Virus record (IMG/VR): IMGVR_UViG_3300031965_000062
Span: 1 to 43,818 of that record
Direction: 5' to 3' (one strand)
Source: a virus
Taxonomy: Duplodnaviria; Caudoviricetes
Length of the DNA stretch: 43,818 bases
This document shows, one piece after another, positions 2,875 to 42,046 of the stretch. Under the pieces are notes generated by a model, which saw only the letters and a list, made by a program, of their open reading frames with translations, had not been told where the DNA came from and did no database searches. Made by a program: the position numbers and the translations under genes. Each line of letters starts with the position of its first letter. Within the stretch, counting starts at the first letter, position 1.

Positions 2875-4417
2875 CTTGCAGTCTCCCCGTTTTTCCGTTC
2901 CAAACAAGCTCGCCGGAAGGCCCAGTGAAGCCGGTGAAGCGGCTCTTCAAAATGAAGACCTGGACGACTCGGTCGTCAGGGTCTTGTTGGTCTCGCGCAA
3001 ACGCTACTACGCTGTCGCTGAGTTGACTGATCCCGGCCGTCCCTCGCAGGTCGCCGAGAGTCGGACGGGCTCCCTCTTCAAAGCTCTTGCCTTTTTCCTT
3101 TGACTTGCTCAGGTGGCAAACAACGATCAGCCCGATGTTCACTTCCCGGGCCAGAGACGCAAGGTGAGTCATCGCCCGGTCTAAGAGGATACGTTCGGAG
3201 TCGGTCGAGTCGATCCCCGAAACCATGATCGAGATGTGGTCGAGAAAAACCCAGCGACATCCCAGACCCACTGCCATGAAGCGGATCTTTGAAAGCAGGG
3301 TCTCGCTGTCGACTGAGCCCCAGTGATCGTAGAACGCGATGCGACCCGAACCGACAGTCGCCTCGAATGCCCCTTTGAACTCGGGGTCGCCGGGAGCCAT
3401 CGGGTCAAGGTGAAGCGGTCGGTTGAGGTGGAGCGACATGAGAGCCGTCGCGGTCCTCTTGACGCTTTCTTCAAGCGCGATGTAGCCGACTTGCTCGCCG
3501 CTTTGGATCAGACTGAACGCCGTCTCGCGGCACACCGTAGATTTTCCGACGCCCGTACCGGCGCAGAACGTGACCAGCTCTCCTCGCCGGAGGCCGCGCA
3601 GGTTGGCGTTGAGGTGGAAGAAGGGATATTCCGCCTCGGTCACAGGGTCCGCCACTTGAAGACGATCCCACAGCTCCGTTCCCTCGACGATCCCGTCCGG
3701 GCGGTACGGCTTTGCCTGCCACATCGCCGAAATGAGTTCGTGGCCTCGGCGGGCGACAAGCATTTCGTTCGCATCCTTGAGCGGCAACGTCGCGATCGAG
3801 GCTTTCCCCGGAGGAAGCAACTCGGCGCAGATCTGCGCGGCGTCGCGGCCCGGCTCGTCGTTGTCGAACATGAGGACGACTTCGTCGAAGGACGAGATCC
3901 ATTCGATGTTCTCACGGATCGAGCGAGCCGCGGACCCGGCGCCGTCTTTGACCGAGACGACGGGCCACTTATTGCCTTGGACCTGGGACATCGACATCGC
4001 GTCTAGCTCGCCTTCGGTGACGACGACTTTTCGACCCCCGCCTTTCCAACACTGCTGGCCGAACAGGACCGCCTTTTTCGAGTCGCCGACCCAGACGAAT
4101 TTCTTGTCGGCGGAGCGGCGCTTCTGCGCAACCGGGCGGCCTTTGACGTCATAGTAAGTGGCGTAGTGGAACGGAGGGTCGAGACGGTAGTCGAACTTAC
4201 GGAGGGTCTCTTCGCTGAGACAGCGCTTCAAGAGAGGAGCGTAGCTGCCGCGGTGAAGCGACTTACTCGCGCCGGTTTTTTCGGCCTCTTCCCCTTCGCC
4301 CGCCTCGTAGGCTCCGCATCCGAAGCAGTACCCGTGACCGTCATCGTAACGCCCGAGGTTGTCGCGACTACCGCAGTGCGGACAAGGCTCATGGCGAATG
4401 ATCGCCGACTCGGTCAT
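2777..4417 (-). CDS. T7 gp4-like DNA primase-helicase
   Basis: Zn finger CPHCGSRD..CFGC, TOPRIM VTEGELDAMS and FDNDEPG, Walker A AGTGVGKST, LDHISI, LRGTAGISQLSD, KSRFTG. Confidence 0.97.
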   Translation of the reverse strand: MTESAIIRHEPCPHCGSRDNLGRYDDGHGYCFGCGAYEAGEGEEAEKTGASKSLHRGSYAPLLKRCLSEETLRKFDYRLDPPFHYATYYDVKGRPVAQKRRSADKKFVWVGDSKKAVLFGQQCWKGGGRKVVVTEGELDAMSMSQVQGNKWPVVSVKDGAGSAARSIRENIEWISSFDEVVLMFDNDEPGRDAAQICAELLPPGKASIATLPLKDANEMLVARRGHELISAMWQAKPYRPDGIVEGTELWDRLQVADPVTEAEYPFFHLNANLRGLRRGELVTFCAGTGVGKSTVCRETAFSLIQSGEQVGYIALEESVKRTATALMSLHLNRPLHLDPMAPGDPEFKGAFEATVGSGRIAFYDHWGSVDSETLLSKIRFMAVGLGCRWVFLDHISIMVSGIDSTDSERILLDRAMTHLASLAREVNIGLIVVCHLSKSKEKGKSFEEGARPTLGDLRGTAGISQLSDSVVAFARDQQDPDDRVVQVFILKSRFTGFTGPSGELVWNGKTGRLQDEEGTRFTSDDDDGGGDENLGSEDGSEAGSEF

Positions 4418-4897: not shown

Positions 4898-5383
4898 CTA
4901 GTGGTCGACATTGACTTCTTCGCGCAGGAACCGGTAGAGGCGTTGGGCCGTTTCAATCGTTAAGTCGCCTTTACTGACATTGCAGGGAGCACAGAGAAAC
5001 GTCGCGTTGCCGAGCTGGTAGGGCCTGCTGGGGTCTAATGCGTCGAGGTGAGCTGCGTCAGCAGCGTTCGGCCCCTCACTTGAAGATAATACGATCTCGG
5101 TTCCGCAGAGGGCACACTCGCCCCCGTTGCAGTCCCAAAGAAACTCAAGAGTCGCAGCTAGTTCCTTCGAGTCAGCGTTGAAGGGAATCCCCCGCCTCCT
5201 CATTCGCTTGATGGCGTTAAACGCAAGCCTTCGAAACGGGTTCTCATCATTCCATTTTCGGTTGACCGCTCGACTGCAAGGCCTGCAGCGGTGGTGGAGG
5301 CCGTCGGGCTTCGAGCGGCTCAGATGGAACTCCGTCCGCGACTTTTCTTCCTTGCATCTCGAACACCTCTTGGTCTCACTCAT
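4898..5383 (-). CDS. Free-standing HNH endonuclease
   Basis: N-terminal CxxC..EF..CxxC, then CALCG..HLD..GNATFLCAPCNVSKG. Confidence 0.8.
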   Translation of the reverse strand: MSETKRCSRCKEEKSRTEFHLSRSKPDGLHHRCRPCSRAVNRKWNDENPFRRLAFNAIKRMRRRGIPFNADSKELAATLEFLWDCNGGECALCGTEIVLSSSEGPNAADAAHLDALDPSRPYQLGNATFLCAPCNVSKGDLTIETAQRLYRFLREEVNVDH

Positions 5384-5846
5384 CGAGCCACTCCCGAGGT
5401 ATAACGCCGTCCGCGAAGAGGACTCCAACCTTTTCACACACATTTGCGTAGGTGGTCTTACTGCCTTTCCGGATCGGGGTCTTAGACCTTTGGAACACGT
5501 AGCGGATGTCGATCTCGGGGTGTTGTTTAATGCATTCTAGCTCCGCTATGCGATCTTCCGGAACCCACCACCCCTTCGCCTCAACGACGATCAACTTGTC
5601 GGTTCTCGTCGTGATCCAAAAGTCGAAGGTCTTTCGTCGGGCCTTGGCGGGCGGGGTGAATTCGAGGGGTCGCTGTTCATACTCGAATTCAACTCCCGCC
5701 GCCTCAAGTTGAGCGACGATCTGGGCCTCGAATTTAGAACGGAGGGCGCGGGCCTTAGAACTCCACGCCGCCTTCCTCGTCACCCAGTCCGGTTTCGCTG
5801 CTGTCATCGCCATCCTCGCTGTTCTCGTCGACGCTGGGGGCGTCAT
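5376..5846 (-). CDS. T7 gp3-like endonuclease I (Holliday junction resolvase); the true start is probably downstream, near 5783
   Basis: RSKFEAQI..FEYE..DF..VEAKG..HPEIDIRYVF..KGSKTTYA; located after SSB as in T7. Confidence 0.92.
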   Translation of the reverse strand: MTPPASTRTARMAMTAAKPDWVTRKAAWSSKARALRSKFEAQIVAQLEAAGVEFEYEQRPLEFTPPAKARRKTFDFWITTRTDKLIVVEAKGWWVPEDRIAELECIKQHPEIDIRYVFQRSKTPIRKGSKTTYANVCEKVGVLFADGVIPREWLDE

Positions 5847-10363: not shown

Positions 10364-11575
10364 CTAAATTTTCCAGTCTAACTTTGCTACCAATTCAACT
10401 AGCTGCGGCAGCGGGTACTCTTTCCCGTATCTCCCCGTCGTCATTGACGAATTCGAGTGACCAAGAAGCTGAGCGATCAGAGCTTCCGGGGCTCCAGAGT
10501 GCTTCAGCTTCGTAGCTACGCTGTGTCTAATGCTGTACAGTACCAGCTTAGGGTCGGTAATGCCCTTGGTCTTCCTGAGCCACGTCTCGTTGAACCACCG
10601 AGACGGAGTCGAGGCGAGTCTCCCCGCTGCTCCCGGTTTCAACTCGGGGAACAACAGGCTCTCGGACTCCCCGGAGGGCCCGAGGATCTGGTGAATTCCG
10701 AGATTCCACAGCTCCGGGTGAATAGGTACTAGCCGCCGGCTGGCTTCGTTCTTGATCCTCTGACCAGGGAGAGCCCCCGTGAAGTCGAAGACCCATACCC
10801 CGTCGGCGTCCCTCTTGTCCGCCTCGATCAGATCCCTCTGTCGTAGCTGGGCTACTTCCTCCGGTCGGGCGCCCGTGTAGAGCATAATCAGAGGAATCCA
10901 GAATCTTGCAACGGTCGCACCTACTGGTTTGAACCTTCTGAAGATATACCCTATCTCTGCGTCGGAAAAGGCTTTTCTCTGACCGGCTGGGGCATTACGA
11001 ACCCTCAACTTGAGGCCGGCGGCGGGGTTCGTGCCGATTTGGGAGCGCGCGACACACCAGTTGAAAAAAGCGGAAATGACCGATAGGTGATGGTTCACGG
11101 TCGATTCGGTCAAGTCGGCCTTGAGTAGAAGCCCTCGGTAATTTACGACGTCGCTCCGGGAGATGTACTGGAGAAGCCGCAGCCCCCCGATGTGGCACTC
11201 AAAACGACCGAGCGTCTGCCGGACAATGTCGCCGTGCTGAGGGCTGACATTCGGGAACTTTTCGCCGAAGAACTCAAGGAGAGCCTGTTCGAGAACGATC
11301 ATACCCCGCGGGGACTCGGGCAGAGAGCCGACGGAGTCCTTCCCCGCGGGGGTGCAGCTTTTTGTTGCACCCTGGACGCGAAAATCGCCAGACGCTCCAG
11401 GATCGCTCAGGAGCGACGATCTCGGGGGAGGGGTTGCCGGGGTACCTTCCGGACCGCGATCGTTCAACCTTGCCCCGGTTCCGCCCCGCTGCTGATGAAT
11501 CACCTCGTCTAGTCGGGTCGATATTTCGGCTACCAGCTCTCTCATTCCCACGAGCTTAGAAAAGTCCGATACCAT
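10364..11575 (-). CDS. int: Tyrosine recombinase / phage integrase
   Basis: YTGARPEE (R), IKNEAS (K), YSIRHS (HxxR variant), LLGHS, TTGRY (Y); RBS GGAGGA before ATG 11575. Confidence 0.93.
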   Translation of the reverse strand: MVSDFSKLVGMRELVAEISTRLDEVIHQQRGGTGARLNDRGPEGTPATPPPRSSLLSDPGASGDFRVQGATKSCTPAGKDSVGSLPESPRGMIVLEQALLEFFGEKFPNVSPQHGDIVRQTLGRFECHIGGLRLLQYISRSDVVNYRGLLLKADLTESTVNHHLSVISAFFNWCVARSQIGTNPAAGLKLRVRNAPAGQRKAFSDAEIGYIFRRFKPVGATVARFWIPLIMLYTGARPEEVAQLRQRDLIEADKRDADGVWVFDFTGALPGQRIKNEASRRLVPIHPELWNLGIHQILGPSGESESLLFPELKPGAAGRLASTPSRWFNETWLRKTKGITDPKLVLYSIRHSVATKLKHSGAPEALIAQLLGHSNSSMTTGRYGKEYPLPQLVELVAKLDWKI

Positions 11576-11576
11576 C

Positions 11577-12533
11577 TCAATCCTCCGTTCGGTCGTGGGT
11601 GTACCCCGCGGGGCGGGGCGGGACGGGATTCCCCGCATTCTCCGGCGACGACGCTCGCAGGCCGCCGCACGTTTGGCATTTCGGTCCGTGCCACAGCGGA
11701 GCGCGTCTCAGGAAATCGCTCGGGCGCGATCCTTCCCCCGGGGGAATAGGGGTTTCGACCGTCAGCGGCTTCGGCGGCGCGACGGTATAAGACTCGCGGC
11801 GGTAGGGCACGTCGCTATAACGTCTGCCGGTGGAGAGACGACGGCGGTGCGGATCGCCGGCCTTTGCGTCGGTCACCCTCCGGTCTACGGGTCCATGACG
11901 GCGCCTTCGTTTGGCTCTTTCCCGGTCGCGCTCGTAATCCCCCTCCCGACGCCCGGTAGCGTTGGTATTTCGGCGGAAGTGTCTCGGGCGCTCTGTATCG
12001 GTCCAGGTATAGTTTTTCACCCGGCGGTCCACTGGTCCTTTGCGGTCGCAGATCCCCCTGCTTCGGGAGTCTTCTTGAGTCTTCTTCGCGGCGACGAGTC
12101 CTGCGTCTCGTTTGATCTCTGCGTCGTGAACTTCGGTCAGGGTCGGGGTGAAAAAGTCGGCCGGGAGACTAAGTTTGGGGAGCTGCCTGTACCTCCACTC
12201 TTCGGAATCCAGGGTGTGCGCCTTGAACCAGAGTAGAAAGGCGATGTTGCAGGCGGCATGGTGCAGGTGGTGGATCAGCGATTCCGCGTCGAGAAGCTCG
12301 CCGCCCTTGTAGGCTTTGAGGTGGCGTTCGAGGGCTGCGAAGTACCGACGGCCGGGGTCAGAAACCGACTTCCATCCGTCGCGGGTGTATTTCTTCGCGC
12401 CGTAGGCCAACACGCGGGCGACGGCCATTTCCAGTTCCACGGGGACCAGCGTGAAGTCGAGCTTTCCGTCGTCGAGTTTCGCGCCGGGGCTGTGAGCGTC
12501 GAGACCGCTCGGGTCTTTGTCTTGATTTTCCAT
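11577..12533 (-). CDS. DUF5664-like dATP/dGTP diphosphohydrolase domain fused to an Arg-rich repeat tail
   Basis: GAKLDDGK..LVP..VARVLAYGAKKY..W..YFAALERHL..DAESLIHHLHHAACNIAFL in the first ~105 aa. Confidence 0.8.
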   Translation of the reverse strand: MENQDKDPSGLDAHSPGAKLDDGKLDFTLVPVELEMAVARVLAYGAKKYTRDGWKSVSDPGRRYFAALERHLKAYKGGELLDAESLIHHLHHAACNIAFLLWFKAHTLDSEEWRYRQLPKLSLPADFFTPTLTEVHDAEIKRDAGLVAAKKTQEDSRSRGICDRKGPVDRRVKNYTWTDTERPRHFRRNTNATGRREGDYERDRERAKRRRRHGPVDRRVTDAKAGDPHRRRLSTGRRYSDVPYRRESYTVAPPKPLTVETPIPPGEGSRPSDFLRRAPLWHGPKCQTCGGLRASSPENAGNPVPPRPAGYTHDRTED

Positions 12534-36699: not shown

Positions 36700-37485
36700 C
36701 TACACGATCGCGGTGTCTTCGAGCGAGATACAGCCTTCGGGCCGGAGGTAATCCTGACCGATGGCGTACTTCGACACGAATAACGATCCCTGTCGACGAA
36801 TGTCGTAGGCGCTCTCCGTCTTCATGTCGAGCAGCTTGACGGTGCCGATCGCGTTCTTGTGCCAGACCAGCCCGACGCACTCGCGGAAGTCGTCGCGGAG
36901 AGGGACGGGAACCGTCGCCTCGGCCGAGTCATCTGCGGTCGGGATGTTGTTGGACTTGAGAACCTGAAGGTCCGCCGCGAAGGGCATGGTCGCCCGCGCC
37001 TTGGAACCGTCACCCGCGAAGTCGCGGTGAATGAACTCTCCGTCCTCAAGCATGAGATACCACGCCAAGGGCAAGAGGGCCGCATAGCGATCGCTCTGCG
37101 GTACGTTCTTCTCGTCGAAAGTCTGCGCGGCGTCGTACAAAGCCGCCTTCAGAATCGCCGGGTCGGTCGAGAGGGCGGCCTGCTGAATCGGCGTGCCGTC
37201 GTTGTTGCCCGAGGTGTCGATCGGGTGAGAGGCGGCGGCGCCCACGAAGACGGCACGAAACGAGTTCGTGTCCTTCGCGTTTGCCAGGGCCTCGCCCAGC
37301 TGGTGCGCGTAAGCCGCGCGCACTTCGTAGTGATTCATGGCCTCGTCGAGGATGTAGATGAAGACGTCGGCTTCGAGGAGTTGCTGAATCGCGATGACCT
37401 TCGCAGCGTGCTCGATCGGCACGCCAACGATCTCGGCGCCCGGCGTATGGTACGCCGCGACCGTCGACCAGGTCAGGGGGAACTG
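36700..37485 (-). CDS. Major capsid protein, exon 2
   Basis: QFPLTW..AYHTPG..ILDEAMNHYEVRAAYAHQLGEALA..DEKNVP..KSNNIP..AIGTVKL..LRPE (T7 gp10-like). Confidence 0.95.
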   Translation of the reverse strand, partial: QFPLTWSTVAAYHTPGAEIVGVPIEHAAKVIAIQQLLEADVFIYILDEAMNHYEVRAAYAHQLGEALANAKDTNSFRAVFVGAAASHPIDTSGNNDGTPIQQAALSTDPAILKAALYDAAQTFDEKNVPQSDRYAALLPLAWYLMLEDGEFIHRDFAGDGSKARATMPFAADLQVLKSNNIPTADDSAEATVPVPLRDDFRECVGLVWHKNAIGTVKLLDMKTESAYDIRRQGSLFVSKYAIGQDYLRPEGCISLEDTAIV

Positions 37486-38098
37486 CATCATATCTTCAAC
37501 AGGCTGCGTTACGGCCTGCCCGCCTTCTAGGAGGCTGCTGGCGATTACTCGCCAGAGGAGACTATCTCTTTGCTGCTATGTTTTTCGAGATACGCCGCCG
37601 CAGCGCGAAGGCGCCGGGGGGAATCCTTCATTAAACCAAGAGCGGTATTGCAATTCGTGCAGAGCAGACCGCGCACTTTACCTGTGCGATGGTCGTGGTC
37701 TACAGCGAGCTTGGAGTAGCGCGAGGAATTCAAAGTACAGCAACAAACAGCGCAGGCGCCGCTCTGCTGTACTAGTATCTCGTCATACCGAGCGTTACAC
37801 ACTCCGTTCTTGCGGTATCGCTGCCTCTCAATCTGACAGCTCTTGCAATGGCGGCGCGGCGTCCCTTCTTTACGGAAGTAGAACTCGCCCAGCGGCTTTT
37901 CAGTCCGGCAGATGCGACAAATTTGCATCCGATGATTCCTTTAGCAGCACTCTGCGCTTCCGAGTCACTAGACCCGTACTGGCATGTGCCATAGTCGTTA
38001 CACGTTCCTGTCGTTAGATCAGGCTTCGCTCGGTATTGCCCGCTAGGGGTGTCCACCGAATTCACAGGGTTTTTGAGTCTGCCCAGTTTTTTGGGTTA
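37486..38098 (-). ncRNA. Group I self-splicing intron (613 nt) in the major capsid gene
   Basis: Exon1 ends ..AAGTCTGCT then TAA; P1 AGUCUGCU/GGCAGACU with U.G at the splice site; P/Q AAUUCGGUG/AAUACCGAGC; P7 GACUA/UAGUC; ends in G before CAGTTC; P10 AACUG/CAGUU; splicing restores SGKSA-QFP. Confidence 0.93.
37545..37928 (-). CDS. Intron-encoded homing endonuclease (EndoVII-like HNH)
   Basis: QSGACAVC..LAVDHDHRTGKVRGLLCTNCNTALG; nested in the intron and overlapping its 3' core. Confidence 0.9.
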   Translation of the reverse strand: MQICRICRTEKPLGEFYFRKEGTPRRHCKSCQIERQRYRKNGVCNARYDEILVQQSGACAVCCCTLNSSRYSKLAVDHDHRTGKVRGLLCTNCNTALGLMKDSPRRLRAAAAYLEKHSSKEIVSSGE

Positions 38099-38263
38099 AG
38101 CAGACTTGCCGCTCGTGATCTTCCGCTCGATCTGTCGATCATCGGTGAGTTGGGTGAAGTCGTATCGCTCCAGCACAAGGCCGGAGAAGACTTCGAGAAA
38201 CAGGGCATCGACATCGCCGGCTCCGGCGATCTGCCCAATTCGTGACGGTACTGCTACTGCCAT
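38099..38263 (-). CDS. Major capsid protein, exon 1 (55 aa; not in the ORF track)
   Basis: RBS AGGAG; MAVAVPSRIGQIAGAGDVDALFLEVFSGLVLERYDFTQLTDDRQIERKITSGKSA corresponds to T7 gp10 ALFLKVFGGEV..SGKSA. Confidence 0.93.
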
Positions 38264-38303
38264 AGGGGTAACTCCTAAGTGGGGTGTGGGTGTGGGGAAA
38301 GTG

Positions 38304-41485: not shown

Positions 41486-42046
41486 TCATTCCGAAGAGAT
41501 AGTCACGGCGGACGAGGCATCTCCCAAGAGGCGAAACGGCTTGACGCGGACCAGCGAGGCGACCTTGAGCTGCTTGACGCGGATGCCCCACGGGCCGAGG
41601 ATTCGGCGGATCTTGTCGAGGGCGGAGTTGCATAGGAAGTCGCCCAGCTCGTCGAAGCTCAACTTCAGCCCCACCTCGACGACTTCCGAACACAGGGTCG
41701 TCATCACAGAGTCGTCGTAGTCCTGGATCGAGCGGTACATCTTCGAGAGGTCAGAAACCTCGTAGTGGGCAGCGAGACGGACACTGACCGCAACCCCGTC
41801 GGCGGACATAAAGTCCAGCCGGGGAGTGATCTGAACGTCGCGAACGGTGTTCTCAGTGTAGAACTCGTAGACGAACGGAAGGATCAGGTGGAAGCCGGAG
41901 CCGAAGACCCCATTCTCGACCGTGGCCGTCTTGACGATCTTTCCGGCGCGGGTGACGACGCCTTGCTGCCACTCGTTCACGCGGTGGATCGGCCAGAACT
42001 CGGTCAGCATGTTCACGAGCTGCTGAAGTAGGTCTCCGAGAGTCAT
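41486..42046 (-). CDS. SPFH (band 7/prohibitin-like) domain protein
   Basis: VNEWQQGVVTRAGK..GFHLILPFV..SADGVAVSV..WGIRV. Confidence 0.75.
   Translation of the reverse strand: MTLGDLLQQLVNMLTEFWPIHRVNEWQQGVVTRAGKIVKTATVENGVFGSGFHLILPFVYEFYTENTVRDVQITPRLDFMSADGVAVSVRLAAHYEVSDLSKMYRSIQDYDDSVMTTLCSEVVEVGLKLSFDELGDFLCNSALDKIRRILGPWGIRVKQLKVASLVRVKPFRLLGDASSAVTISSE

Follow-up and report, generated by a model that had tools for sequence, protein, structure and literature searches.

A predicted self-splicing intron with an Endo VII-type nuclease gene in the major capsid gene of a T7-like phage

The major capsid gene of the phage analysed here is broken after 55 codons by an in-frame stop and resumes 613 nt downstream; how would a full-length capsid protein be made from such a gene, and what accounts for the insert? 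The window (the whole stretch of DNA analysed, 43,818 nt, IMG/VR record IMGVR_UViG_3300031965_000062) looks like a whole T7-like phage genome, and its ends overlap by 248 nt, 247 of them identical. It encodes a T7-type RNA polymerase, primase/helicase, family A DNA polymerase, portal, scaffold, tail tubes, terminase and an integrase; the capsid gene lies on the minus strand between the scaffold and tail-tube genes. The integrase, of the tyrosine type (10364-11638), is encoded just upstream of the T7-type RNA polymerase gene, so the phage is probably a temperate T7-like phage. Also encoded are a dATP/dGTP diphosphohydrolase domain protein and an HD-type deoxynucleotide phosphatase (11580-12533 and 1915-2499), a pairing that may reflect nucleotide-pool editing or base modification, and an SPFH/Band 7 domain protein (41486-42046).

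The explanation we favour, with a probability of about 0.92, is that the capsid gene is interrupted by a 613-base group I intron of subgroup IA2 in which an intact Endo VII-type nuclease gene is nested, that predicted self-splicing of this intron restores a protein of 316 residues, and that the intron likely spreads by homing into capsid genes that lack it. The sequences show exact boundaries, a ribozyme fold that is complete and covaries, an undamaged nuclease with an excess of synonymous change, a patchy presence among relatives and a conflict between nuclease and capsid trees, and on this evidence the intron in the window is real and very likely functional. The features of the locus, all on the minus strand, are as follows.

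38272..38276, minus: Shine-Dalgarno-like AGGAG, 8 nt ahead of the capsid start codon (from the sequence)
38099..38263, minus: capsid exon 1, 55 codons (phrog_267 match and exon joining)
37486..38098, minus: group I intron, subgroup IA2, 613 nt, in-frame TAA at its start and G (37486) at its end
38076..38088, minus: internal guide, unique pairing with both exon ends, compensatory changes
37949..38070, minus: 5' ribozyme core with P3, P4, P5, P6, P6a, P7 5' strand, P7.1 and P7.2; no P2
38070-38063/37956-37949, minus: P3, with one C.A mismatch that is C-G in L170
38060-38055/38034-38029, minus: P4
38023-38020/38010-38007, minus: P6a
37996-37992, minus: P7 5' strand
37991-37980, 37979-37977 and 37976-37961, minus: P7.1, GUA linker and P7.2
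37572..37948, minus: P8 (37948-37942 with 37578-37572), its loop housing the nuclease gene; a U-A pair is changed to C-G in L170
37545..37928, minus: DHHRN / Endo VII-type nuclease, 127 aa (PF02945 Endonuclease_7, E 7.6e-23)
37500..37564, minus: 3' core with P7 3' strand, P9, P9.1 and P9.2
37564-37560, 37555-37538, 37535-37522 and 37518-37500, minus: P7 3' strand, P9, P9.1 and P9.2
36700..37485, minus: capsid exon 2, 261 codons plus stop (PF21703, E 3.5e-51; phrog_267)

The split gene and its ribozyme

Exon 1 ends with the codon GCT, followed by TAA as the first intron triplet, and exon 2 opens with CAG at 37485. Excising the 613 nt in silico yields a stop-free protein of 316 aa with the junction SGKSA/QFP, which aligns over residues 1-316 with the capsid proteins of the intronless loci L001 and L002 at 72-73% identity. 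The boundaries and the restored protein put forward by the sequence-only reading hold to the base, and its claim that the full capsid protein depends on (predicted) splicing is also right. Positions 33-75 of the PHROG 267 profile fall in exon 1, and those from 76 on in exon 2. In the model of a 73% identical relative, the part corresponding to exon 1 forms a helix (18-37), a strand (45-49) and the start of another (54-60). In the L001 model (mean pLDDT 78.6) the insertion site used in the window, site A, falls within this second strand, and a neighbouring site used by related introns, site B, falls in the turn between the two strands. The insertion motif ranks 11th in conservation among 304 twelve-residue windows.

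The intron has the features of group I: a P1 helix with U.G at the 5' splice site, a terminal G, P10, and a P3-P9 core. P1 consists of 8 bp, U.G included, between 38083-38076 and exon 1 (38099-38106); P10 consists of 5 bp between 38088-38084 and exon 2 (37485-37481). A contiguous 13-nt guide matching both exon ends occurs once in both strands of the 43.8 kb, at 38083, and the wobble position of Ser54 is matched by compensatory guide changes in the related introns L158 and L170. P7.1 and P7.2 lie between P7 and P3, joined through G-U-A, and P2 is absent; these are the traits given for the IA2 intron of the T7-like phage Pf-WMP3 (PMC3428280; papers are cited here for parts of their text). The elements P3 to P9.2 were placed by hand on the window sequence, and P9.1 was folded and compared with L170 only, outside the covariation count. 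That count covered ten helices in an unfitted MAFFT alignment of 11 related introns. Pairing was found in 92.5% of paired cells, versus 67.2% after shuffling and 39-42% when the structure was slid along the alignment, a comparison in which the structure has an advantage over the slid controls because it was taken from the window's own sequence. Both sides change in 37 of 52 pairs, and none of 500 shuffles attains the observed pairing, a count that is not a probability because the 11 introns are related. P7, with its conserved guanosine site, is invariant in all 11, and the other helices covary. L170, the nearest intron, has compensatory changes in P1, P8 and P9. The identification as group I, made earlier from P1 with its U.G, P10, P7 and the terminal G, stands, now with a covarying core.

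With the 384-nt ORF left in, Rfam model RF00028 matches the region at 42.8 bits (E 2.3e-9), against a gathering cut-off of 50; an Rfam search at the gathering threshold returns nothing, and the match appears by E-value alone. It is the sole Rfam match at E<=1 in the 43.8 kb, and no second intron was found in the window. Isolated core pieces mostly folded no better than shuffles (z +0.05, -1.07, -1.54); only P1 reached -2.79. We also considered that the window intron might join the guide of one clade of short relatives to the body of a long clade; this was dropped, as the exon ends determine what the guide must be, and L170 is built in the same way from end to end.

Splicing and homing would proceed as follows. 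Ribosomes would halt at the first intron codon, the core would fold, and guanosine would attack at the U.G pair, with P10 then aligning exon 2 for ligation. The nuclease would be translated from a start codon of its own within the P8 loop. On co-infection, or on meeting a prophage, it would cut alleles that lack the intron, within or close to the SGKSAQFP codons, and repair would copy the intron in, along with some flanking exon. The family as a whole has switched between two sites several times, likely through changes in the guide sequence.

A nested nuclease and a mobile family

The nuclease gene has its own AAGGA and ATG inside the P8 loop. Its last 34 nt serve also as the P8 3' strand, J8/7, the P7 3' strand and P9, and its stop codon sits in the P9 GUAA loop. 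The nested EndoVII-like ORF noticed in the sequence-only reading proves to be intact and to carry the Endo VII motif D, H, H, R, N together with zinc-binding cysteines: residues D77, H78, H80, R86 and N94 and eight Cys (including C59, C62, C90 and C93) are invariant in 24 of 24 aligned members. Among solved structures the best relative is Hpy99I, to which a profile of the family aligns almost from end to end (E 1.3e-15); T4 Endo VII is also matched. An origin by local duplication was rejected, the other endonuclease-like ORF of the window (4901-5443) being not detectably related (E 0.24).

The distribution of the element was surveyed from both sides. A search with exon 2 found 58 viral loci, 55 of them informative at the insertion motif; 49 of the 55, including the three nearest, are intron-free there, and six hold an insert. 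Among the best 80 of 195 nuclease matches in viral contigs, 36 of the top 37 adjoin capsid exons, and none of the remaining 43 splits a capsid gene. Further scans were added, and the parsed set came to 98 loci including the window (some contigs having been fetched twice); L079, L089, L188 and L344 are unparsed and stand outside the family set. Dereplication at 90% nuclease identity, with L178 dropped, left 38 introns; the 5' splice-site calls of L160 and L250 are uncorrected, and dereplication removed both. Twenty of the 38 occupy site A, after Ala55, as in the window, and 18 occupy site B, after Gly52, the two lying 9 nt apart in SGKSA/QFP. An in-frame stop lies within six codons of the 5' splice site in all 38, a known trait of such introns (PMC3073962, section 8). 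There are also two intron builds, long (n = 19, the window included) and short (n = 19). Site and build groups were fixed before the nuclease tree was made; the tree splits by build with support 100/99, while the insertion site needs five changes on it, and the AU test rejects a grouping of all site-A introns in one clade (p 2.6e-7).

Optional presence and horizontal transfer, the marks of a mobile intron, were both found. The sister of the window nuclease is that of L170 (77% identity, support 99/94), and yet the L170 capsid is just 42% identical; the window capsid instead groups with the intronless L001-L003 at 100/100 (LG+G4, with a long-branch warning elsewhere in the tree). Intron presence changes 14 times on the capsid tree, in which the placement of L159 is less reliable, its upstream flank being the end of an insertion sequence and not exon 1. 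A sister intron, in L011, occupies site B in a gene whose capsid protein is 99% identical to that of the intronless L006. Of the 16 DNA differences in 750 nt between L011 and the intronless L006-L008, 15 are found between -66 and +60 relative to the insertion site, the pattern that co-conversion during recent homing would leave.

Several single loci are recorded here as observations. A transposase-like ORF (L159:536-1849), which we take to be IS256-like from its motif, stands at the very start of a site-B intron and splits off exon 1 on a contig of a Gemmatimonadales MAG; in L160, from the same MAG, the intron is intact. An ORF-less group I intron of ~270 nt occupies a third capsid site, near residue 292, in L029 (~3695-3970). 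In the nuclease genes of two contigs a TGA replaces the codon for the final Cys of the second zinc pair (L097:2088-2090, L098:670-672), a pattern matched in these two contigs only. The two genes differ by 31 synonymous and 13 replacement codons, a constraint equal to that of intact pairs; possible explanations are read-through and a C-terminal half produced on its own. A selenocysteine-type hairpin behind the TGA was not distinctive compared with other family members. Klebsiella phage Henu2_3 (L060) and Rhizobium phage RHph_N3_13 (L061) have related ribozyme cores flanked by fragments of terminase or ribonucleotide reductase, in stretches with no annotated intron. In L201, L202, L207, L330 and L336 an intact capsid gene is directly followed by a free-standing gene of the Endo VII type, possibly a case of intronless homing on the same gene.

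Does the window nuclease still home? No near-identical intronless allele of the window phage was found, the nearest capsid being 73% identical, and recent homing is therefore shown for the sister intron L011 only. An intron that still splices while its nuclease is inactive, or its target has drifted, would fit this lack of a close intronless allele. We consider this loss unlikely: the catalytic and zinc residues are all intact, a ribosome-binding site and ATG are present, and synonymous codon changes exceed replacements (45 to 29) in the comparison with L170.

A much less probable account concerns why the intron is kept. The sequence-only reading suggested that splicing, being guanosine-dependent, could serve as a checkpoint; in this account the intron is retained for such metabolic control of capsid synthesis. 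Conditional splicing has precedent, efficient splicing of bacterial group I introns needs translation of the upstream exon (PMC3073962, section 8), and a side effect on capsid output is conceivable. The survey leaves the proposal unsupported all the same: most informative homologues, the three nearest among them, do without the intron, its presence has come and gone repeatedly on the capsid tree, and nothing in the data points to guanosine sensing. Horizontal movement and an intact nuclease account for its persistence without any benefit to the phage, and the patchy, horizontal occurrence fits a selfish element. Cellular GTP levels, moreover, usually exceed the guanosine affinity of such introns by a wide margin.

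Failure to splice is more improbable again. An in-frame ATG pair where the intron reaches its 3' end (37491-37486) opens a 263-aa ORF; capsid might be made by starting there, from exon 2 alone, or else from two peptides. An in-frame ATG is found in the last 30 nt of just 11 of the 38 family introns, however, and the ribozyme fold covaries; the strong ribosome-binding site, furthermore, belongs to exon 1, which codes for a helix and a strand that are conserved, and the N-arm joins capsomer contacts in the related P-SCSP1u capsid (PMC10575957). Least credible of all is an assembly chimera, or a free-standing nuclease gene disrupting the capsid gene, for although the DNA comes from just one metagenomic contig, 19 other introns of the dereplicated set, those of cultured phages among them, sit at this junction too, and the guide is tailored to the exon's own TCT codon.

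The cultured phages carry the short site-A intron, which is present in nine GenBank records representing seven Ralstonia phages. These phages were isolated as virions, which suggests that their sister intron splices. The three Ralstonia phage records examined annotate no intron and give the capsid as fragments or hypothetical proteins, bearing out the earlier expectation that automated annotation would mis-call such genes; the word "intron" is absent from the main text of a genome paper on three of these phages (PMC8703784). Searched by blastn with the whole window intron, GenBank phages yielded no record covering 80% of it.

A nuclease frame through the core of the short introns

In the short clade the coding sequence appears to reach much further into the ribozyme. 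In 18 of the 19 short introns, versus 4 of 19 long ones, no stop interrupts the nuclease frame between the guide and the end of P3-P7, and the other two frames are open through P3-P7 in 1 and 0 of the 19 short introns; the 18 open frames are not independent, because the core is conserved. All 15 site-A short introns (L025, L034, L059, L094, L096, L142, L143, L147, L149-L152, L155, L158 and L199) have an in-frame ATG (13) or TTG (2) in the P1 loop or overlapping the exon-1 stop. Across these 15, the P4/P5 segment measures 30, 33, 39, 42 or 45 nt (39 in L152, read by hand), all multiples of three. Such frame-keeping insertions and deletions are stronger evidence for an extended nuclease frame than the number of open frames, and we infer that the 5' extension is translated in the short clade. 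The intron of the window itself lacks a frame through its 5' core and has the 3' overlap only.

On balance we lean towards a wider reading of the family, in which SGKSA/QFP is a contested homing hotspot for one capsid-specific DHHRN lineage with two sites 9 nt apart and repeated retargeting. In one clade, translation of the nuclease would re-initiate just behind the stop of exon 1 and run across almost all of the 5' core, the same bases acting as guide, catalyst and coding sequence, so that nuclease synthesis would compete directly with capsid splicing.

Comparison with known introns and nucleases

The element itself is of an ordinary kind and capsid-gene introns are not new. No description of this capsid hotspot, insertion site or intron family was found in the literature searched, although supplements and subscription papers (intron databases, F-CphI tables) may list them. 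The family adds the capsid gene to the DNA polymerase genes as a home of introns in T7-like phages and supplies a candidate target, defined and conserved, for DHHRN nucleases. It also corrects annotation, seven cultured Ralstonia phages carrying the sister intron and the three records examined showing none. Its natural pairs (with and without intron, site A and site B, own and read-through start) offer tests of the core-creep model and of how a very abundant mRNA can be spliced when its ribozyme is also translated.

A capsid gene is a less surprising host for an intron than the sequence-only reading made it. The capsid intron of mycobacteriophage LittleE was proven by RT-PCR and N-terminal protein sequencing, and the same paper cites a capsid intron in lactococcal Tuc2009 (PMC3706429); crAss-like Delta phages typically carry capsid introns, and Zeta phages too have introns in the capsid gene (PMC7886860). 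As in all of these, the most abundant virion protein depends on splicing, which is predicted for the window. The window differs from them in phage family and in insertion site (PMC3706429, PMC7886860), and the LittleE intron has an antisense nuclease of another type (PMC3706429).

The intron of Pf-WMP3 (PMC3428280) is similar in its T7-like host, in its P1-P10 structure without P2, in P7.1-GUA-P7.2 and in a nuclease ORF overlapping the core; in the window, by contrast, it is the major capsid gene that hosts the intron, and a DHHRN enzyme is encoded in the P8 loop, not an HNH enzyme starting in P6a. The D-H-H-R-N motif and the location within a group I intron are shared with the DHHRN family (PMC6083498), which includes F-CphI and intron-encoded members in LUZ24 and in the Yersinia phages Berlin and YpP-G. 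DNA polymerase genes are where the paper places the intron members that it names from podoviruses, and "capsid" is absent from its main text; the clade of the window nuclease, unlike the intron members named there, is capsid-specific among its top matches. Finally, the last 34 nt of the window nuclease gene, in doubling as ribozyme structure, resemble "core creep" (PMC3073962). The longest overlap in the table of that review is 81 nt, with the caution that long 5' overlaps may be mispredictions, whereas the short clade has an open frame of ~115-140 nt through the 5' core in addition to the 3' end.
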